64,000 nucleotides of DNA from Alphaproteobacteria bacterium (GCA_017443235.1 JAFSOV010000004.1:974-64973), one strand, 5' to 3'. Counted from the first letter of the stretch, positions 8,417 through 60,480 are shown. The notes: generated from the sequence alone by a model not told the origin. Numbers and translations are program-made.

Positions 8417-9118
8417 TTAACGCATTTTCAATAATTTTATAATTTGTTTTTGGGTGTGCAACATACTGGATTCCATATAATCGGTATATGCGCGGCGGTT
8501 GCCATCAATTCGATTATGCAACGCATCTGTATATGCCGTCGCATCCGTCTTTTTATTGAATATTATTGGCCGGTAACCATTTTGTATCAAAAGCCAATTC
8601 ATTATTAAACGTGCGGTACGTTTATTATAATCGTTATACGGTTGCGTCATTATAATATCAAAGTGAGTATCAAACGCCCGTGTTAAAATGGAATAGTTTT
8701 CATCGTGTAAATGGTATTCTATCTGTTCCATTTTGTAATAAATCTGTTCAATGGACGGCGCGAATTCGCCCAACACCATGGTCCCAGAAATTCTGTACCC
8801 GGGACGCACATCTGTATTTCTGGCCAATATTTTCTGTATTTCGGTCATTTGATACATATCTATATTCGTTTTCTTGTGCTTTAAGATATAATCATATGCG
8901 ACACCAATATTTTTCAAATTGGTCCAATCAACAAAGGCCATTTGTTTGTCCTTTGCAAATCCTTTGGTTTGCGGTTTGGCCAAAATCATAGGTTCAACCG
9001 AAGTAATCTCGTGCCGCAGCATATTGATACTTGCGACATTTTTTCCAGATTGACGCATTAAAGCATCTATCGCCTGGCGATTTACCTCAATCATTTCTTT
9101 ATTCGTCAATTTTTTCAT
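8417..9118 (-). CDS. Fic/DOC-family protein with a degenerate active-site motif
   Basis: The region IIMTQPYNDYNKRTARLIMNWLL aligns to the Fic motif HPFxDGNGRxxR, but reads QPYNDYNKRTAR (His replaced by Gln). Confidence 0.55.
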   Translation of the reverse strand: MKKLTNKEMIEVNRQAIDALMRQSGKNVASINMLRHEITSVEPMILAKPQTKGFAKDKQMAFVDWTNLKNIGVAYDYILKHKKTNIDMYQMTEIQKILARNTDVRPGYRISGTMVLGEFAPSIEQIYYKMEQIEYHLHDENYSILTRAFDTHFDIIMTQPYNDYNKRTARLIMNWLLIQNGYRPIIFNKKTDATAYTDALHNRIDGNRRAYTDYMESSMLHTQKQIIKLLKMR

Positions 9119-9245
9119 ATTTTTGCCTTTGTCACATATAATATAATACAAAAACATATAATTGTCAATATTTTAACACGATTTTCGGCCCATAAACACT
9201 AACCAAAATTAAAAATCCACCATCGGCGGATTTTTAATTTTAATC

Positions 9246-9339
9246 TGGCGGATGGTGAGGGATTTGAACCCCCGAAGGTCTTATTTCATACCTTGTCCGA
9301 TTTCAAGTCGGATGCATTCAACCGCTCTGCCAACCATCC
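9246..9339 (-). tRNA. tRNA-Ser (anticodon UGA), long variable arm, CCA encoded
   Basis: Reverse complement GGATGGTTGGCAGAGCGG...CCGACTTGAAATCGG...GGTTCAAATCCCTCACCATCCGCCA folds as a class II cloverleaf. Confidence 0.9.
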
Positions 9340-9409
9340 TTAACTTTTTTCTTGCCGTATCATACGGCATTTTTTTCTAAAACGCAAATAAAATACACAT
9401 AAAAAACAC

Positions 9410-9660
9410 TTGCCTTGTTGTTGTCTTTTCGTTTAACATCGATATGAGCCAAATGGGAATTTGGTTCGGGGCTGTGGTAGGCCCACGCTAGTTCGGTGCA
9501 ATGCATCGTAATCCATTGGATTCTCATGTTTTTGCACCGTCGTAATGTCCCCGACTGTGGTCGGGGTGCGGGTGGCGTATATCAAAAGGTCATCTGGATC
9601 GTTAACTAGCGTGATTTACCAACACCCCGACCGTCAATTCCCCTTTGACGGTTTCTTTAT
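9410..9660 (+). promoter_or_regulatory. type I structured leader, copy A (promoter, ~200-nt RNA, terminator-like hairpin)
   Basis: TTGCCT-18-TAACAT promoter. Shares TTGGTTCGGGGCTGT..GCCCA..TTCGGTGCA and a compensated long-range helix with 32424-32680. Ends with ACCGTCAA-loop-TTGACGGT plus a T-rich tail. Confidence 0.55.
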
Positions 9661-9677
9661 GAAAACAGGGGAATTTT

Positions 9678-10652
9678 ATGAAAAAATTTGGGATTATCAT
9701 TTGTGGCATTTTTATGATTTTTTCTGCATTTGCCATGGGTGAAAATGTTCCAACATCCAAGAATTATGTGGATACCGCCGTTGCGGTAAAACAAGACAAA
9801 ATTTTGGCAAATGATGGTACGGCCCAGGTTTTAACCAACACGGGCACCGCGGGCGAAGTTGGGACAAAAGAAATCTATGATTCCACCGGTTCATACTTGG
9901 CACAAACCGATGCATTGATTGACGCCGTCACAATGAACACGGCGGTTCAAAACGCAATCAACAGTGAATTCCAATGCATTGAATACAACCCGAACGACCC
10001 AACCGATTGTTGGATAATGGATATTTTCGGCGAAACCGGGCAATCCATTTTACCATCGGGATACACCGCATTGGAATATATCGCCGGCACCGGAACACAA
10101 TACATTGATACGGGCGTTATACCAGATAATCTTACAGGCATTGATATAAAATTCAATAAATCCGCCACTGGAGACCAAGTCGTTTTTGGGATACTATCAT
10201 CGGTGACCACCCAACAATTATATATTAATCCTGTGGGCGGCAGTATTTATCTGCCATTTGCTGAAAAATATAATCAAGCGAGCGCCGGTATCCCGTTCAG
10301 CAACAATCTCGATTTTGATGTAAAGATTAATTATTTGAATGACAGGAAACGATATGTCAATGCCCGAAAAGCACCGGATATAAACAAAACACTAATTTCG
10401 CCGGAATATACAATGTACCTGTTTGCGGGCCATAGCGCAGGCGGGGCCGCCCGATGGTTTTTTAATGGTAAAGTTTATTATCTTAAAATCACAAACGGCG
10501 CCACAATTACGCATGATTTCGTTCCCGCGCGGCGCGATAGTGACGATAAAATTGGAATGTATGATATGGTCAGTGGCACATTCTTTACCAACTCTGGCAG
10601 TGGTGAATTTATTGCCGGGCCGGTTGTGAATTTGTATGTACCAAGCAACTAA
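9678..10652 (+). CDS. secreted protein, YVD-motif family, with a C-terminal tail-fibre-like module
   Basis: Signal peptide, then TSKNYVDTAVAVKQDKI and QCIEYN..DC blocks shared with 24672-25085 and 60538-61164. RBS AGGGGAA. Confidence 0.7.
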   Translation: MKKFGIIICGIFMIFSAFAMGENVPTSKNYVDTAVAVKQDKILANDGTAQVLTNTGTAGEVGTKEIYDSTGSYLAQTDALIDAVTMNTAVQNAINSEFQCIEYNPNDPTDCWIMDIFGETGQSILPSGYTALEYIAGTGTQYIDTGVIPDNLTGIDIKFNKSATGDQVVFGILSSVTTQQLYINPVGGSIYLPFAEKYNQASAGIPFSNNLDFDVKINYLNDRKRYVNARKAPDINKTLISPEYTMYLFAGHSAGGAARWFFNGKVYYLKITNGATITHDFVPARRDSDDKIGMYDMVSGTFFTNSGSGEFIAGPVVNLYVPSN

Positions 10653-10655
10653 CCG

Positions 10656-11357
10656 CTATTCCCGCCAGATGACGGTTTCAAACAGGGAATTTATTTCGCT
10701 GCGTAATTTTTCATCATCAAAAAATGCGTTGCGCATCGCCGGCGTGGTGCCATGTTCGGTATCTTCAAAATGCGGAACATATTTTTGCACCGCAAAGTTT
10801 TTGAACCCGCGCGCGGCCACGTCTTGTGCAATTTTTAATAAATCATCGGGCGTAACATATCGCGGGTCCACGGTCGTCCTGACCTCGGCCGGTTTGCCGG
10901 TTTGCGCCCACACGTCCAGACTTTTTATCATCCGTTCATATGCGATATTTACGCCCGTCAATTTTTCGTAATTTGTTTTGGTTGCCTTGTAATCAATGCC
11001 AATCCAGTCAATTAAATCCGCCGCGTGCGCTAAATTTTCCGGATAAAATCCATTGGTGTGCAAACCAATGGAAAATCCCAATTCCCGCACGCGGCGCATA
11101 TAGTCAAATAATGGTTCGCCCTGCATCAACGCTTCGCCCCCGGAAAAGACCACCGCCTCTAACCGGCCGACACGCGTTTTCAACCATTCAAAGACTTTTT
11201 CGGGGTCATATTCCCCCACCCCGACCGGAATCAGATGCGGATTGGAACAATATGCACAACGAATTGGACAACCAACCAAAAACAGCACGCACGCCAATTT
11301 GCCCGGATAATCTATCGTTGTGAACGATACCAATCCACCAATCTGAATCGTATTCAT
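10656..11357 (-). CDS. nrdG: anaerobic ribonucleotide reductase activating protein (radical SAM)
   Basis: CPIRCAYC CX3CX2C cluster motif. Lies directly downstream of nrdD. Confidence 0.85.
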   Translation of the reverse strand: MNTIQIGGLVSFTTIDYPGKLACVLFLVGCPIRCAYCSNPHLIPVGVGEYDPEKVFEWLKTRVGRLEAVVFSGGEALMQGEPLFDYMRRVRELGFSIGLHTNGFYPENLAHAADLIDWIGIDYKATKTNYEKLTGVNIAYERMIKSLDVWAQTGKPAEVRTTVDPRYVTPDDLLKIAQDVAARGFKNFAVQKYVPHFEDTEHGTTPAMRNAFFDDEKLRSEINSLFETVIWRE

Positions 11358-11360
11358 TTT

Positions 11361-11546
11361 TTATGCGGCCATTTTTAATAATTCGGTATGACGCGCACCG
11401 GCGGTCAAACTGTTCGCTTCGGTAAAGGTTTTTCTTTCGCAGAATTCCGAATATTTACCAATGTTAAAATTGCTGGTCGGGCGGATAAATCCCATGCTGC
11501 GTGAGAAAACTTCGCATTTTGTTCTTTGTTGTGTATTTGCAATCAT
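11361..11546 (-). CDS. stand-alone glycyl-radical domain of class III RNR (61 aa)
   Basis: CEVFSRSMGFIRPTSNFNIGKYSEFCERK aligns with the NrdD C-terminal RVCGYLG...FNAGKQEE block. Own RBS AGGAAAGGAGAG. Confidence 0.7.
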   Translation of the reverse strand: MIANTQQRTKCEVFSRSMGFIRPTSNFNIGKYSEFCERKTFTEANSLTAGARHTELLKMAA

Positions 11547-11595
11547 TTTTTACTCTCCTTTCCTGTTTTTTTTGATTGTTTGTTTTATGGTTCTT

Positions 11596-13638
11596 TTATG
11601 CCTTGTTTGATGCGTCATCGGTACATATTCCCAATTCTGCATCGCATTTTGGACAAAACTCGTGCCGACCCGGCAAATACCCATGCTTTGGACATATTGA
11701 AAATGTCGGGGTAAGTGTCATGTACGGAATTTTATAGTTTTCGAATATCGTGCGGACAATTTTCTGGGCCGCTTCGCCGGATGACACCGGTTCACCCATA
11801 TACAGGTGCAACATTGTGCCACCGGTGTATTTCCGTTGCAATTCTTCCTGGTGTTCCAGGGCGACAAATGGGTCGTCCGTAAAGTTCACCGGTAATTGCG
11901 TGGAATTTGTGTAATACGGTGCCTCACGCGTGCCGGCGGTAATAATATCAGGGAAGTTTTTCACATCGGTTTTTGCAAAACGATATGAACAGCCTTCGGC
12001 CGGTGTTGCCTCCAAATTATACAGATTTCCGGTTTCTTCTTGGAACGTGGCCAATTTATCACGCATAAAGTCCATCAAATCCAAAACGAATTTTTTACCA
12101 AACGGTGTCGCAATATTTTCTTTGCCGTCTGTAAAGTTCAAAACCATTTCGTTCGCGCCGTTCACACCGATTGTGGAAAAGTGATGATTCCAATTTCCCA
12201 AATAACGGCGGGTGAACGGATACAAACCATTTTCCATATGTTTAGATATCACGCGGCGTTTGATTTCCAAAACTTCACGTCCCATATTCATAAGGCGTTC
12301 CAATTCGCGATACAAACCTTCGCGGTCGCCTTTGTGACGGTACCCCAGGCGCGCCAAATTCATTGTCACAACGCCGATTGAACCCGTTTTTTCCGCCGAA
12401 CCAAACAGCCCACCACCGCGTTTCAACAGTTCACGCACATCAAGACGCAGCCGACAGCACATTGAACGAACATCCGTCGGATTCAAATCAGAATTCAAGA
12501 AATTTTGGAAATTTGGAATTCCGTATTTTGCCGCCAAATCGAACAAAGGTTTAACGTTCGGGTGATCCCACGGAAAATCATCCGTTATATTATATGTTGG
12601 AATCGGGAAAGTGAACGGACGACCATGCGCGTCACCTTCGGTCATAACCTCGATAAATGCCTTGTTTATCATATCCATTTCGGCCTGCAAATCGCCATAG
12701 GTAAAATCAACCTGTTTTTTGCCGATAAATGGACGTTGGGCACGTAAATCCTTGGGGCATGTCCAATCAAATGTAAAGTTAATAAACGGCGTCTGGGTTC
12801 CCCAACGGCATGGCACCGCACAGTTAAACACCAATGTCTGCATTGCGTTTTTCACATCGGCATACGACATATTATCAACGCGGACATACGGTGCCAGGTA
12901 TGTATCAACCGAAGAAAACGCCTGGGCCCCGGCAAATTCGTTTTGCAACGTCCCCAGGAAATTCACCATATGCGAAATCGCGGTCGCCATGTGCCGCGCC
13001 GGTTCGCATTGCAGGTATCCCGGCACACCATTGAAACCTTCGTACAACAATTCGCGCAGTGACCAACCCGCACAATAACCGGTCAACCACCCAAGGTCAT
13101 GAATATGAATTGCGGCACTGCGGTGTGCATCGGCAATTTCTTGCGGGAACATATTCAACCAATATTCTGCGGTGACGCGTTCACTGGTCCGCAAAATAAG
13201 ACCACCAATAGAATAACCAATATTCGCATTTTCTTTGATACGCCAATTAGAACCACCGACATAACTTTCGATAATTTCAATCGCATCAACATTTGCGTTA
13301 CGAATTTCAGAATGTTTTTGACGATATATAATATATGCCTCGGCCGTTTTGTATGCGCGTGCATCCATCAATTTGCGAATCACTGTATCTTGAATTTCTT
13401 CGACCGATGGCGTGCGTCCCATAAAATTATTGTCCAAATCACTTAAAACATCGTTTGTGATTTGAACAACACGTTCATCAGATATTTCATTCGTTGCCAC
13501 GGCCGCCTTTTTAATGGCTTCAAAAATTTTCTTAGGCTCAAACGCCACCGTTTCGCCCGAACGCTTTTTAACACTCATAACATTGCAAATAAATGTCGGC
13601 GCGACCTGCATTTTAACCTCTTTTTCGTTATCAGACAT
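11596..13638 (-). CDS. nrdD: anaerobic ribonucleoside-triphosphate reductase, large part ending after the Zn ribbon
   Basis: N-terminal ATP-cone (VKKRSGETVAFEPKKI), class III RNR core, C-terminal CPKHG..CPKC. ATG at 13638 with GGAG upstream. Confidence 0.9.
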   Translation of the reverse strand: MSDNEKEVKMQVAPTFICNVMSVKKRSGETVAFEPKKIFEAIKKAAVATNEISDERVVQITNDVLSDLDNNFMGRTPSVEEIQDTVIRKLMDARAYKTAEAYIIYRQKHSEIRNANVDAIEIIESYVGGSNWRIKENANIGYSIGGLILRTSERVTAEYWLNMFPQEIADAHRSAAIHIHDLGWLTGYCAGWSLRELLYEGFNGVPGYLQCEPARHMATAISHMVNFLGTLQNEFAGAQAFSSVDTYLAPYVRVDNMSYADVKNAMQTLVFNCAVPCRWGTQTPFINFTFDWTCPKDLRAQRPFIGKKQVDFTYGDLQAEMDMINKAFIEVMTEGDAHGRPFTFPIPTYNITDDFPWDHPNVKPLFDLAAKYGIPNFQNFLNSDLNPTDVRSMCCRLRLDVRELLKRGGGLFGSAEKTGSIGVVTMNLARLGYRHKGDREGLYRELERLMNMGREVLEIKRRVISKHMENGLYPFTRRYLGNWNHHFSTIGVNGANEMVLNFTDGKENIATPFGKKFVLDLMDFMRDKLATFQEETGNLYNLEATPAEGCSYRFAKTDVKNFPDIITAGTREAPYYTNSTQLPVNFTDDPFVALEHQEELQRKYTGGTMLHLYMGEPVSSGEAAQKIVRTIFENYKIPYMTLTPTFSICPKHGYLPGRHEFCPKCDAELGICTDDASNKA

Positions 13639-13663
13639 ATCAAACTCCAATTTTTGTCAAAAA

Positions 13664-28724: not shown

Positions 28725-28744
28725 TTTGATTCCTTTTTTTGTTA

Positions 28745-28953
28745 AAAAAGAAACCACCCGAAATAAATTCAAAGTGGTTGGAGTCTTAACGACAATCAAG
28801 CGAATTGCTGTGCTTATTCAGTATATTCACACACTCCAACCAGTGGTTGGAGATTTTTGTGTCCCTCCGGACACGCCTGACATGGGCGTTAAGACCCACA
28901 GACGGAACGCCCGTCTGTGATTTCATAATAACATTTTATATGCGAAAAGGCAA
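28745..28953 (-). promoter_or_regulatory. type II (CTCCAACC) leader/sRNA module, copy a
   Basis: On the minus strand: TTGCCT-17-TATTAT, hairpin CAGACGG/CCGTCTG, CTCCAACC-AGT-GGTTGGAG hairpin, a second CTCCAACC overlapping the terminator AACCAC..GTGGTT, then a T-run. Confidence 0.6.
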
Positions 28954-29020: not shown

Positions 29021-29097
29021 GGGGTGTTAGCTCAGCTGGTTAGAGCGTCTGCCTGTCACGCAGAAGGTCGAGGGTTCGAGCCCCTTACATCCCGCCA
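29021..29097 (+). tRNA. tRNA-Asp (GUC)
   Basis: GGGGTGTTAGCTCAGCTGGTTAGAGC..CTGTCAC..GGTTCGAGCCCCTTACATCCCGCCA cloverleaf. Confidence 0.92.
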
Positions 29098-29116
29098 GTT
29101 TTTTTGTGTCAGTTCC

Positions 29117-29191
29117 GGCCCCATCGTCTAATGGTTAGGACACCGCCCTTTCAAGGCGAGAATCCCGGTTCAAATCCGAGTGGGGCTGCCA
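29117..29191 (+). tRNA. tRNA-Glu (UUC)
   Basis: GGCCCCATCGTCTAATGGTTAGGACACCGCCCTTTCAAGGCG..TTCAAATCC..TGGGGCTGCCA. One mismatch each in the anticodon stem and the T stem. Confidence 0.85.
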
Positions 29192-30737
29192 AATCAGAGT
29201 CACCGTCCATTTGGGCGGTGTTTTCGTTGAAAATCTGCACTGTTGAGGCGGTTCGAAATCCTGATTCTTGGTGATAGACAGGTTTTTCAGTAAAAATCAA
29301 CCTAACAAGACGTCGTTTTTGCGAAATTGTGCCGCGTGACCATAGTAAATCAGGCCTTTTGAAAAATTCGCGTCCGTTTTCAATGGCGGTTCGAAATTTT
29401 TCTGCGACATTGGATGCAGTGTTATTTTCCAATTGTTTTTCCAATGCTTGCTTGTTGGCATTTAGTTCTTTAATTTGCCCCTGGTATATGTTCGCCAAAT
29501 CTTTATCACCACTTGCCAGAGCATTCATAACCAGCGCAGTGATTCCCGATATTTGTTGTTTTATTTTTGTTATTTTATCGTGCGTCTTGTTGTTTGCGCT
29601 GGTTATTTCGTTTTCCCTAATTTTGCCTATCTTTGTAATCATGGCACAGCATAAATCAAGAAACTTGTCTGTCGCTTTTAATGTGCGCAGTTTTTCCACA
29701 AAAGCATCTTCAATAAGGTTCCTGCGTATGGATTTTTTGTGAAACACGCATTCTTTGTTATGGCACCTGTAATATGGATGCATACACCCCCTTGTTCCGC
29801 TTTTCGCGTAATAGCCGGTTAATGGATGCCCACAATGCTCACAAAACACCTCGTGTCGCAATGGAAAATCATCGGCAATAGTGGATTTATATGATTTATA
29901 ACCCCCTTTGTCTAATCTGGCTTGAACAGCATCGAACAAATCCATTGGTATCAGTTTAACCATTTTCCATTCTTGTAGTGGTATTTCCCATTTGTCATAA
30001 GCAAACACACCAGTATAAACCACATTGTGCAGGATATCATTTGCGGCTGTATCGGTTATTCTGCGACCGTTCCATGCATCATGCGAATTTAAGAAATCTG
30101 CGACCGCATGTTTGGTTGCCAATTCGCCACTGGCATATTTGGCGAATGCTTGCTGTATCAATGTGGCCTTTGGTTCGTCTGGCACCAAAATAACCTTGTT
30201 ATGTTCATCTTTTTGCCTTTTTAACCCCAATGGCGGATTTAGTGGGTAATAACCAAGTGTCATTAAAGAGCGCATAGAGGCTCTGGTCTTTTCTGATAGT
30301 TCGTCACTAAACCGTCGTGCATTTAGTATGTCTATTCCGCGCACAAAACGACCTGTGGCATTGTTCTGTGATTTTCCGGCCACGACCGTTAATAGTTCTA
30401 TATCGTATTTTATAACCAAGTTTTCAAACCGGCTAAACACCTCTAAATTGCGCGATAATCGCGACATATCAAAGAACAAGACCCTTATTCGCTTGTTTTT
30501 CTGTTCTTGGGTTATATATTCCATCATCATGTCAAGCCCCGGGCGGTCAGTTTTCCACCCAGATACCCCGTCTTCATAAAAGAACTTATCAATTATAAAT
30601 CCGTTGTTTTTCGCATAATCCAAACATGCCTGTTTTTGTGACATGATGGTTTCTTTCTTTGCTTGTTTGTCTGATGAAACACGGCACAGACACAATGTTT
30701 CAATTGGTTTTTCTTTGGTTGGTATATATTTTTTCAT
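29151..30737 (-). CDS. large serine recombinase
   Basis: 528 aa. Resolvase catalytic block LCRVSSDKQ and YEDGVSG, recombinase domain, Zn-ribbon CEHCGH..C..C, coiled-coil tail. The 3' end runs into tRNA-Glu. Confidence 0.85.
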   Translation of the reverse strand: MKKYIPTKEKPIETLCLCRVSSDKQAKKETIMSQKQACLDYAKNNGFIIDKFFYEDGVSGWKTDRPGLDMMMEYITQEQKNKRIRVLFFDMSRLSRNLEVFSRFENLVIKYDIELLTVVAGKSQNNATGRFVRGIDILNARRFSDELSEKTRASMRSLMTLGYYPLNPPLGLKRQKDEHNKVILVPDEPKATLIQQAFAKYASGELATKHAVADFLNSHDAWNGRRITDTAANDILHNVVYTGVFAYDKWEIPLQEWKMVKLIPMDLFDAVQARLDKGGYKSYKSTIADDFPLRHEVFCEHCGHPLTGYYAKSGTRGCMHPYYRCHNKECVFHKKSIRRNLIEDAFVEKLRTLKATDKFLDLCCAMITKIGKIRENEITSANNKTHDKITKIKQQISGITALVMNALASGDKDLANIYQGQIKELNANKQALEKQLENNTASNVAEKFRTAIENGREFFKRPDLLWSRGTISQKRRLVRLIFTEKPVYHQESGFRTASTVQIFNENTAQMDGDSDLAAPLGFEPGFSP

Positions 30738-32423: not shown

Positions 32424-32680
32424 TTGACTTTTTTCCTGTTTGCGTGTAAAGTTTTTCATGAATCCAAGAGATTGGGTTCGGGGCTGTCACAAGCCCATCT
32501 CATTCGGTGCATAAGCATCGTTAAATTGTTAGCATGGCGCGTTTGCGCCGGCTTTCCCCGCATGGTCGGGGAGTCGTGGTTATACAATAGGGGTAACCCG
32601 AAACCCACGAAATCAATAATGAGATGATTGTGAACTCCCCGGCCGTCAATCTTTTGGCGGTCGATTTTATTTAACCAAAA
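32424..32680 (+). promoter_or_regulatory. type I structured leader, copy B
   Basis: TTGACT-17-TAAAGT promoter. Same conserved blocks as 9410-9660. Helix CATCTCATT/AATGAGATG replaces ACGCTAGTT/AACTAGCGT. Terminator-like CCGTCAA..TTGGCGG plus T-rich tail. Confidence 0.55.
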
Positions 32681-32688
32681 GGGAAAAT

Positions 32689-33333
32689 ATGAAAAAATTA
32701 TTGTGTGCTTTGGGCTTGCTATGTGTGTTGTGTGCATGTGACCGAAACGAAAACAAAAAGCAACAATCACCACTAGTAAAAAGTGTAATAACTTTTCGGG
32801 CTTTTCATCAGGATGTTTGCAAATGTGTTCTTGGGAATATGCCGACATTTGTTAAGACACTTAATTCAGACGGGTATAATAATATCAATGCTTTTTGTTT
32901 TTGGGGTGCATATTTTTGTTCAAACCAAAAATCAGACGAAACCATTATGGCCGCTGCTAAAGTCATTGACGGTTTAGACAGTTTCCAATGCGCCGATCCG
33001 CACTTTAATGAAAGGTTTGTTGCGGCCAGTGAAAAGGCAGGGGTCGATGCTTTGTGTCCCGCTATATGGCAACAAGATAATGTTTTGTATTTAAGCAAAT
33101 TGGCGCATTTAACAAATTCGTGTCAGTCAACATTTGGTAAAAGCGAAATCGAATGTTTGTGTGCGGTTGATAATTATATGTCGCATTTGTCTGAAGCCGA
33201 ATTCAAAGCATTAAAAAGTTATGGGCAATTCTTTCCTGGTTATGGGTGGATGGCGAATACCAAAGCAAAACAACAAATGACCGTCAGCATAATGACAAAA
33301 ATGCGAAATGCGGTTGCGGCATGTGCAGAATAA
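32689..33333 (+). CDS. cysteine-rich lipoprotein, unknown function
   Basis: Signal peptide with lipobox VLCAC. 214 aa. Confidence 0.6.
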   Translation: MKKLLCALGLLCVLCACDRNENKKQQSPLVKSVITFRAFHQDVCKCVLGNMPTFVKTLNSDGYNNINAFCFWGAYFCSNQKSDETIMAAAKVIDGLDSFQCADPHFNERFVAASEKAGVDALCPAIWQQDNVLYLSKLAHLTNSCQSTFGKSEIECLCAVDNYMSHLSEAEFKALKSYGQFFPGYGWMANTKAKQQMTVSIMTKMRNAVAACAE

Positions 33334-35882: not shown

Positions 35883-36511
35883 CTGTACTTATCCCCCCCA
35901 CCCCCCTATGGGGGTAGTGCTTGAATTGTGCGATATATATCAAAGAATGCTTTTCTTTACATGGCATGCCATTAAGTTATGGTTCACGTTATGGGTATTA
36001 TCTTAACCTTTATATCCCATCTATACCCTTGTTATCATCCCTGGTTAGAATATCGTTCTGGATTATATTTATTTGGTTTTGTGGGGTTTGCGTTTGTGTG
36101 TGTTTGTATCGGGCATAAAGTGCAAAATCAACATCCATTAGGGATTCTGCGATATTTATAGTTTGCTCAATAAACCGGTTCAAATTTGTAAGGTCTTGGG
36201 CTGCCAAAATAAAAAGACCACCATTTTGGTGGTCGTTTTATTTTGTTCAACCCCCGAATTTGAACCGCGGTTCACAATGAGTAAGCGAAAACGAACGAAG
36301 CGAAGTTTGAGCGCCCGGGCCCCGCAAAATTGTAAAATTTTGTGGGTGGGCTTACGAATGCCCCGCAGGCGCAAGCCGAGGGAAATCCGAGTGGGACAAT
36401 TACGAAAATCTTAAAAAATCGACAGATGGAGATTTTTTTGATTTTCGTTATTGGGGATGTCCGTTCTTGACGAGTTTTTATAGATTTTTATTATTGTGTA
36501 TTGAGGAAGCG

Positions 36512-53199: not shown

Positions 53200-53237
53200 A
53201 CCTTATCCTTTCTTTACGAATGTTCGATTAGACACGA

Positions 53238-53453
53238 ACAAAAAACCACCAGACAAAGCAAGTGGTTGGAGGTTCAGAACTATTATGCTCGGCAAATAGT
53301 GGGCTTATTCAACATATTCACCGCCCTCCAACCCTGCCTTAGGTTGGAGGTATTTTTTGTCCCCGCGGACACCGAACATAACAAGGGTTCTGACACCCAA
53401 CAAAGCAACCGCCCTGTCAATGGTATGTTACACTAAAATTGGATAAAAATCAA
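53238..53453 (-). promoter_or_regulatory. type II (CTCCAACC) leader/sRNA module, copy c
   Basis: On the minus strand: TTGATT-17-TAACAT, CCTCCAACC-loop-GGTTGGAGG hairpin, GAATAT..GAATAAG box, a second CCTCCAACC overlapping the terminator AACCAC..GTGGTT plus T6. Confidence 0.6.
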
Positions 53454-60210: not shown

Positions 60211-60431
60211 TTGCATTAAAATTACTTTGATGCTAACATTCACTATGTCGGTGGGTGTTCCGCCGATGGGGTGTGAAGACCCCTTTACATGTGGCCCGTA
60301 TGGGCAAAAAACTCCAACCCCAGGGTTGGAGGGATGCGAATAATATAGGGCCCAGCCCATAAAATAAGCACACAATTTGCATGTAAATTGTCTTCAACCT
60401 CCAACCACTCGAATTTTTCGGTGGTTTTTTA
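60211..60431 (+). promoter_or_regulatory. type II (CTCCAACC) leader/sRNA module, copy d
   Basis: TTGCAT-17-TAACAT, hairpin TCGGTGG/CCGCCGA, GGGGT..ACCCC, CTCCAACC-CCA-GGGTTGGAG, then CCTCCAACCAC overlapping the terminator AACCAC..GTGGTT plus T6. Confidence 0.6.
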
Positions 60432-60480
60432 TTCCCCTTCACACCGTGAAGGGGGGGACCACCGGAGGTGGTGGGGTAGT
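60432..60480. repeat. GC-rich double-hairpin module, variant of 41481-41529
   Basis: CCCCTTCACACCGTGAAGGGGGGGACCACCGGAGGTGGTGGGGTAG. The second stem changes from CCGCG/CGCGG to CCACC/GGTGG. Confidence 0.75.

Follow-up and report, generated by a model that had tools for sequence, protein, structure and literature searches.

The window analysed here, a 64-kb stretch of alphaproteobacterial DNA, carries two copies of a structured leader of the type I family, copy A and copy B, each placed on the plus strand between a promoter-like site and an ORF without known family. Copy A adjoins tRNA-Ser (9246–9339), and several homologous loci also have a tRNA at most 1 kb from the leader. A Fic/DOC family protein is encoded upstream of it (8417–9157, minus strand), while NrdD anaerobic ribonucleotide reductase and its radical-SAM activase lie downstream on the opposite strand (10656–13650, minus strand). 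Between tRNA-Ser and the copy A promoter, a terminator-like hairpin, TGCCGTATCATACGGCA, followed by T7, is found at 9353–9369 (plus strand), with no plus-strand gene upstream of it to be terminated. The features of copy A are as follows:

9410–9439, plus strand: promoter-like site, TTGCCT (9410–9415), an 18-nt spacer and TAACAT (9434–9439)
9441–9661, plus strand: copy A, structured leader, type I family member
9446–9467, plus strand: P1 hairpin, GAGCCAAA with TTTGGTTC, alignment columns 9–14 with 27–32
9469–9484, plus strand: Pa local hairpin, GGGC (9469–9472) with GCCC (9481–9484)
9475–9493, plus strand: 5' strands of P3 (9475–9480, inside the Pa loop) and of P4 (9484–9493)
9494–9539, plus strand: P5 domain, CGGTGCAA (9494–9501) with TTGCACCG (9532–9539)
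9549–9555, plus strand: S2, CCCCGAC, the upstream partner of S3; S2:S3 is the putative local anti-antiterminator hairpin
9559–9568, plus strand: S3, GGTCGGGGTG, the candidate switching segment, with S2 or S4 as partner
9569–9598, plus strand: hp1 hairpin with the A/U-rich loop GUAUAUCAAAAG, a short form of the Xcc1-type AUACAAYA...AAAG motif
9596–9601 with 9612–9616, plus strand: candidate alternative hairpin hp2, GGATCG with TGATT, conserved segments that could pair
9604–9621, plus strand: 3' strands of P4 (9604–9613) and of P3 (9616–9621)
9623–9632, plus strand: S4, CACCCCGACC, the downstream partner of S3; S3:S4 is the putative antiterminator and Xcc1-type closing helix
9629–9660, plus strand: intrinsic terminator called by the terminator scan, stem-loop 9629–9653 and T-rich tail 9654–9660 (TCTTTAT)
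9667–9672, plus strand: RBS, AGGGGA
9678–10652, plus strand: ORF A, 324 aa, with an N-terminal signal peptide and without known family

Copy B has the same arrangement:

32424–32452, plus strand: promoter-like site, TTGACT, a 17-nt spacer and TAAAGT, found by the promoter scan and by the family consensus
32455–32670, plus strand: copy B, whole structured leader, covariance model hit of 176 bits
32460–32479, plus strand: P1
32487–32492 with 32628–32633, plus strand: P3
32496–32504 with 32618–32626, plus strand: P4
32555–32560, plus strand: S2
32564–32574, plus strand: S3
32634–32644, plus strand: S4
32640–32663, plus strand: intrinsic terminator called by the terminator scan, with the U-tract ATTTTATTT
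32689–33333, plus strand: ORF B, 214 aa, with the lipoprotein-type signal LCAC and without known family

A large serine recombinase with Resolvase, Recombinase and Zn_ribbon_recom domains (29151–30737, minus strand) lies approximately 1.7 kb upstream of copy B and adjoins tRNA-Asp and tRNA-Glu (region 29021–30737); copy B may therefore be part of an integrated island. In addition, a mini-element of approximately 70 nt (36208–36278, minus strand) with a P1-like hairpin, UUCGGGG and a terminator hairpin, devoid of the core and scoring 12.8 bits, may be a degenerate leader.

Both regions were read directly, and every sequence string that the first-pass annotation had reported was found at its coordinates. 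These include the long-range helices, correct in position and pairing, of copy A (CACGCTAGTT, 9484–9493, with AACTAGCGTG, 9604–9613) and copy B (CATCTCATT, 32496–32504, with AATGAGATG, 32618–32626), together with the G/C-rich segments S2, S3 and S4 of copy A and their S3 and S4 equivalents in copy B (GGTCGGGGAGT, 32564–32574, and ACTCCCCGGCC, 32634–32644). The blocks shared by the two copies exceed chance, as 0.02 occurrences of the 23-nt block GGTTCGGGGCTGTNNNNNGCCCA would be expected in the window and exactly two are present. Both copies fold far below the energy of their dinucleotide shuffles (z = -5.9 for copy A and -7.2 for copy B), and both score 176 bits (E about 1e-51) with the covariance model R1, built from 69 homologues.

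Leader families and the genes that follow them

The scan of the whole window against Rfam 15 at gathering thresholds returned five tRNAs and nothing else, and copies A and B have no gathering-score match to any of 4227 Rfam families. They form a new family of leader RNAs of approximately 215 nt, type I, that is absent from Rfam at curated thresholds and was not found described in the literature on sRNA-Xcc1 or on Enterousia. The family was collected by searching the 23-nt block in one genome per species (185,579 species), which gave 100 loci; approximately 75 of these are true homologues that share the same 3' blocks, and the remainder are chance hits in high-GC genomes. Since the alignment was seeded with this exact pattern, the invariance of columns 29–51 is partly ascertainment. 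Further copies were recovered with the covariance model in the flanks of known loci, and the family, conserved well outside the source genome, now has at least 85 members. All true copies belong to gut or rumen Alphaproteobacteria MAGs of the order Rs-D84, labelled Candidatus Enterousia, 'Rickettsiales', RGIG or RUG, whose genomes measure approximately 0.75–1.0 Mb (PMC12306168). Several copies per genome are present, with 4–7 in several genomes, and, as an unbiased estimate, the covariance model found six hits in 744 kb of Rs-D84 sequence that had been selected without regard to type I. The type I pattern gave no hits in the viral contigs of IMG/VR. Three truncated leaders (L027:7618–7730, L050:307–404 and L014:5372–5502) keep the 5' ~100 nt only and are natural deletion variants that have neither switch nor terminator; in two of them, the leader is followed directly by an AG-rich, RBS-like sequence (GGAG in L027) and an ATG.

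A sister family, type II, has four copies in the window, all found with a covariance model:

60242–60434, plus strand: type II leader
53236–53423, minus strand: type II leader
41780–41940, minus strand: type II leader
28744–28923, minus strand: type II leader

Its layout is the same as that of type I, consisting of a promoter, P1, a GGGG-N8-CCCC hairpin, long-range helices, S2/S3/S4, hp1 (with the loop GAAUAU..GAAUAAG), a terminator and an RBS. The 24-nt triple pattern of type II was found at 120 loci or more, all in the type I clade, with an estimated one expected by chance. No Rfam similarity was detected for type II in E-value mode. Its downstream genes encode secreted proteins and XRE-like HTH regulators.

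The type I unit is ordered as a sigma-70 promoter, the structured RNA, an intrinsic terminator, an RBS and an ORF. The promoter consensus of 76 members is TTGAC(A/T) at -36 to -31 and TGnTATAAT at -15 to -8 from the first G of P1, and this fixed distance implies that the transcript starts at P1. For copy A, the promoter-like site would place the start at approximately 9446; its match is weak, and the consensus promoter scan did not call it. The proposal that the element is a 5' leader agrees with this start at the first helix and with the same-strand RBS and ATG, which lie approximately 40–55 nt past S4 in nearly all members.

The annotation had also placed both copies before secreted proteins, and ORFs A and B do begin with signal-peptide or lipobox sequences. 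By a crude test, similar N-termini occur in 47 of the 69 downstream ORFs (approximately 70%), among which recurring families begin with ...TSKNYVDT..., ...SRGFLDE... or ...TATSLKYV...; other ORFs look cytoplasmic, e.g., GT6-like glycosyltransferases. The genes under type I leaders would be mainly those of surface and secreted proteins of genome-reduced gut symbionts. The downstream genes as a whole are too diverse for a ligand guess, and ORFs A and B and their neighbors match no Pfam or PHROG family, so that their function offers no clue to a ligand. GC-rich REP-like hairpin repeats, e.g., CCCTTCACACCGTGAAGGGG and GTGTAAGTGCCGTCATTCC..., have been inserted after some leaders, ahead of the ORF, and shift the start codon 190–230 nt downstream; they were seen at 60436–60470 in the window and downstream of the leaders in L007, L024, L068, L074 and L097.

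Core fold, covariation and strand

In the 69-sequence alignment, 97% of cells are paired, compared with 36–47% when the partners are slid, and 471 cells show double changes against 127 ± 13 in shuffles. Covariation supports P1, P3, P4, P5, hp1 and the terminator. Two pairs of P1 covary, with 97.6% of its cells paired. The compensation of the long-range helix, first noticed between the two copies of the window, holds across the family, with double changes at seven of nine P4 pairs and three of six P3 pairs (42:264, 43:263 and 44:262, each with 27–32 double changes and no broken cells). Covariation is also seen at seven of eight pairs of P5, which in copy A surrounds the conserved GCATCGTAATCC block and one variable hairpin, at all four stem pairs of hp1 and at three stem pairs of the terminator.

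Pa is a 4-bp local hairpin formed by S1, with the 5' strand of P3 as its 8-nt loop, giving an H-type pseudoknot geometry. Its pairs co-change in members recovered independently of the search pattern (GGAU:AUCC in L162, AGGC:GCCU in L136 and U:A at the fourth pair in L056 and L092), and its type II counterpart covaries as well (pair 60:73, GC 34 and AU 6). Similarly, the loop of hp2 is the 3' strand of P4. In type I, the hp2 strands RRUCA and UGAUU are compatible through R:U pairs in approximately 68 of 69 members, with one-sided changes only, while in type II the hairpin covaries (pair 210:234, UA 30 and AU 13). Another helix, P2, which was proposed by the MFE and RNAalifold folds from the GGGG of S1 and the CCCC of S4, was rejected, as it never covaries; moreover, a single U at column 272 is compensated in S3 rather than S1, and S1 changes are compensated within Pa in the unbiased members. 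Taken together, the modeled type I RNA would either adopt a doubly pseudoknotted fold or exist as two global conformers.

G:U pairs are frequent (e.g., 41 at pair 11:30 and 44 at pair 273:300), and the reverse strand scores only 9–21 bits with the covariance model; both point to an RNA structure on the plus strand, as had been proposed. The same evidence bears on the suggestion that the leader acts at the DNA level, for instance as a recombination site, MITE or integron attC-like structure. Such an element would fit the occurrence of sRNA-Xcc1 in integron cassettes, the position of copy A beside tRNA-Ser and the 1.7 kb that separate copy B from a serine recombinase flanking tRNA genes. However, many G:U pairs would read as C·A mismatches on the opposite strand, the leaders keep one orientation with respect to promoter, terminator and ORF, and the absence of hits in viral contigs speaks against a phage origin. 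Short ORFs that start at 9445 and 32457 could instead recall a leader-peptide attenuator; a leader peptide was, however, rejected because the two ORFs differ in the frame in which they cross the conserved block. Most members moreover lack an ATG at this place. Either of these explanations, a DNA element or a leader peptide, is considered highly improbable.

Putative switch segments, terminator and competing explanations

The G-rich segment S3, with the type I sequence GGTCGGGGNG, was predicted to pair either with the upstream S2 or with the downstream S4, and in at least 69 homologues it has indeed two covarying partners. For S3:S4 (columns 183–191 with 267–275), 95.7% of cells are paired and pairs 190:268 (AU 24, GU 24 and UA 20), 185:273 (CG 52, UG 13 and UA 4) and 186:272 covary, the last by a single A at 186 in S3 that is matched by a U at 272. 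The S2:S3 local hairpin has -10 to -16 kcal/mol in nearly all of 72 members and shows several Watson–Crick pair types at four positions, including an apical extension that is unable to pair with S4, although these counts derive from MFE folds, which are biased towards pairing. In a divergent member (L076:1910–2083), GGGG of S3 has become GGGA and CCCC has become UCCC in both S2 and S4. In type II, the three segments have all changed together, to CTCCAACC / GGTTGGAG / CTCCAACC, which resemble Shine–Dalgarno and anti-Shine–Dalgarno sequences. These joint replacements are two independent lines of evidence that both pairings of S3 are under selection.

In both copies, a G+C-rich hairpin is immediately followed by a U-tract, as expected of an intrinsic terminator, and the terminator scan called the hairpin and T-run that had been noted before the RBS (9629–9653 and 32640–32663). 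A hairpin of -7 kcal/mol or lower with five or more U in 8 nt is present in at least 58 of 72 members; L072 and L090 keep the hairpin without the U-tract, which counts against an attenuator. The overlap of S4 with the terminator was likewise confirmed, at 3–4 nt, GAC(C), with GACC at 9629–9632 in copy A, and its shortness also counts against attenuation. Blocking the shared bases nevertheless weakens the terminator from a median of -10.9 to -5.0 kcal/mol (-11.5 to -4.3 kcal/mol in copy A and -12.3 to -4.1 kcal/mol in copy B) and parts its stem from the U-tract. The duplex energies are approximately -21 kcal/mol for S3:S4 and -11 to -13.5 kcal/mol for S2:S3; with the terminator energies added, S2:S3 plus the full terminator is roughly isoenergetic with S3:S4 plus the crippled terminator, before loop penalties.

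S3:S4 crosses P3/P4, which the first-pass annotation had overlooked. When S3:S4 is enforced without pseudoknots, the fold is by a median of 12.8 kcal/mol worse than the MFE, and the nested terminated fold is the MFE in all members. The antiterminated state must consequently be a pseudoknot, a global refold in which P3/P4 are lost, or a state that is stabilized; given the 12.8 kcal/mol penalty, a non-pseudoknotted ON fold that simply drops P3/P4 was judged unlikely unless a stabilizing factor is present.

That the terminated fold is the MFE throughout, together with an own conserved promoter and a canonical terminator, would also suit a stand-alone sRNA gene, in which the RNA of approximately 215 nt is itself the product, acting in trans or binding a protein, and the position before an ORF only reflects a promoter shared through leaky read-through. 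Likewise, sRNA-Xcc1 was found to accumulate as a separate 88-nt species whose ends were mapped (PMC2996969). Yet the RBS and ATG follow the U-tract within approximately 25 nt in nearly all of the ~70 loci, leaving no space for a second promoter, and the leader subtypes travel with their downstream gene families, the short-hp1 subtype with the TSKNYVDT proteins. Furthermore, the conserved competition of S2, S3 and S4 over the terminator would have no obvious role in such a gene, and the variable helices are internally paired and hence are not free seed regions. A stand-alone sRNA appears unlikely, if still worth keeping in mind.

The intrinsically greater stability of S3:S4 over S2:S3 would in turn be expected of a constitutive structural 5' UTR that stabilizes the mRNA, directs processing or enhances translation, with S2:S3 as a co-transcriptional folding guard later displaced by S4 and without any sensing. 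A density of two type I and four type II leaders in 64 kb of a genome of <1 Mb (PMC12306168), together with the very diverse downstream genes, would also be more in keeping with a general-purpose module than with a metabolite sensor. In that case, however, a strong, conserved and covarying terminator between leader and RBS would be wasteful, and the many highly conserved unpaired nucleotides are typical of binding pockets. This constitutive role appears rather improbable, somewhat more so than a stand-alone sRNA.

The explanation preferred here is that the type I leader is a cis-acting transcription attenuator, riboswitch-like or factor-dependent, which, as read from the sequence, is on balance probable. 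The structured 5' UTR domain is backed by covariation, and it has mutually exclusive, covarying pairings (S2:S3 and S3:S4), the second of which shares bases with the terminator through S4, in support of the terminator/antiterminator layout of riboswitch or attenuator type proposed at the outset. Terminator-type switches are exemplified by trp-type attenuators and by the multi-copy c-di-GMP-I riboswitches that precede surface-protein genes. The type I leader resembles such terminating systems in being a conserved structured 5' leader, in the mutually exclusive pairing of one segment with two partners, of which one overlaps an intrinsic terminator right before the RBS, and in occurring many times per genome ahead of envelope and surface genes. 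It differs from them in having no known ligand or factor and no leader peptide, and in its antiterminator helix, which crosses other covarying helices and would thus form a pseudoknot.

In the proposed mechanism, transcription would begin at P1 from the leader's own sigma-70 promoter, and the RNA core would fold into P1, Pa with the loop that forms P3, the long-range P4, P5 and hp1. By default, the local S2:S3 hairpin would form first and leave S4 free, so that the full terminator would stop transcription before the RBS (OFF). Pairing of S3 with S4 would take 3–4 bp from the terminator stem and shift the stem from the U-tract, resulting in read-through into the gene (ON). The balance would be set by a signal, be it a small ligand, a protein or another factor, that stabilizes the core closed by S3:S4 and thereby favors read-through. 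The leader may be a ligand riboswitch or, equally, an attenuator that depends on a protein or an RNA; copies at such a density, before so varied a set of genes, fit a signal or an RNA-binding factor that acts globally.

Relation to sRNA-Xcc1 and biological meaning

The element had been described as unclassified, which holds insofar as no Rfam family is matched at its gathering score; it does not hold for the 3' half, which is related to sRNA-Xcc1 (RF02221). In E-value mode, sRNA-Xcc1 was the sole meaningful match for either copy: the 3' 90 nt of copy B (32564–32652) score 43 bits against a cut-off of 53 (E = 1.5e-6), copy A gives no hit to RF02221 at E up to 10, and none of 18 homologous loci reaches the gathering score of 53 bits. 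Judged by sequence and predicted fold, the 3' half of type I is a diverged sRNA-Xcc1-like module.

Both RNAs have a G/C-rich closing helix, which in type I is the covarying 9-bp S3:S4, as well as a location approximately 50 nt upstream of a same-strand ORF; the second hairpin of Xcc1 would correspond in position to the candidate hp2. Copy B and most members further resemble Xcc1 in a first hairpin with the internal loop AUACAAYA ... AAA(G/U) and a small hairpin inside it. The internal loop AUACAAUA / GAAUA and the GNRA-type inner hairpin of Xcc1 correspond to UAUACAAYAGGGG..CCC.AAAG in these members, and in copy A and its subfamily the motif is reduced to the plain loop GUAUAUCAAAAG. Unlike sRNA-Xcc1, the type I leader has an extra 5' domain of approximately 125 nt (P1, Pa, the 5' strands of P3/P4, P5 and S2) that pairs into the hp2 region, a promoter-inferred start approximately 120 nt upstream of S3 rather than at S3, a separate terminator hairpin after S4, where in Xcc1 the closing helix itself precedes the U-run, and hosts among the Rs-D84 Alphaproteobacteria. 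Type I would be best described as an Xcc1-like core inside a larger attenuator that is specific to its clade and whose expression platform is new.

Elsewhere, Xcc1 lies approximately 50 nt upstream of same-strand ORFs as well. On a P. aeruginosa plasmid, the ORF encodes a BRO family protein, on N. vulgaris pDsulf-L2-2 a hypothetical protein, in Xanthomonas integron cassettes symE (bioRxiv 10.1101/2025.06.18.660453) and in APSE phages an ORF6N protein (10.1101/2020.03.17.996009). The RNA of Xcc 8004 was described as a trans-acting, discrete and stable RNA of 88 nt with mapped ends (PMC2996969), which is consistent with a terminated leader. An Xcc1-like element with a wholly different closing helix, GGACGCGTGG / CCACGCGTCC, was also observed in N. 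gonorrhoeae (L101; NZ_CP119140.1, 1480–1580); the record, a 2.17-Mb 'plasmid', is probably a chromosome under the wrong label. Downstream of this element lies a consensus promoter, TTGACA-N17-TATAAT, instead of an ORF.

Xcc1 adjoins C4 and isrK in a Xylella prophage. The c4 antisense RNA of phages P1 and P7 (immI; Rfam C4, c4-2 and c4-a1b1) is, similar to type I, a structured RNA in the leader of the genes it controls, and both have copy-specific variable sequences with complementary partners on the same transcript. In contrast to c4, the variable P3/P4 strands of type I have no third complementary site near the downstream RBS, and Rfam similarity is absent. A c4-like cis-antisense model was rejected, as the mean longest match near the RBS was 5.07 against 5.00 ± 0.10 with permuted partners.

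A broader and so far speculative proposal, unlikely though less so than the alternatives above, is that type I and type II constitute an orphan riboswitch superfamily, perhaps with dozens of copies per genome, that acts as the main regulator of the surface proteome and of XRE-type regulators in genome-reduced gut symbionts, with the sRNA-Xcc1 fold as its minimal sensing core. If so, Xcc1, which has carried the annotation of a trans-acting virulence sRNA for 15 years, would become a widespread cis-acting sensor before mobile-element genes (symE and BRO/ORF6N); the reading of sRNA-Xcc1 as a cis-regulatory leader is new and testable. Type I itself offers a concrete orphan-riboswitch candidate for which a ligand or partner could be sought, and hundreds of diverged copies with covariation for two competing structures would be useful for the study of pseudoknotted switches. 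If the model is true, bacteria with genomes of <1 Mb, poor in protein regulators, would place many surface and host-interaction genes under a single RNA switch family, at a copy density comparable to that of T-boxes in Firmicutes.
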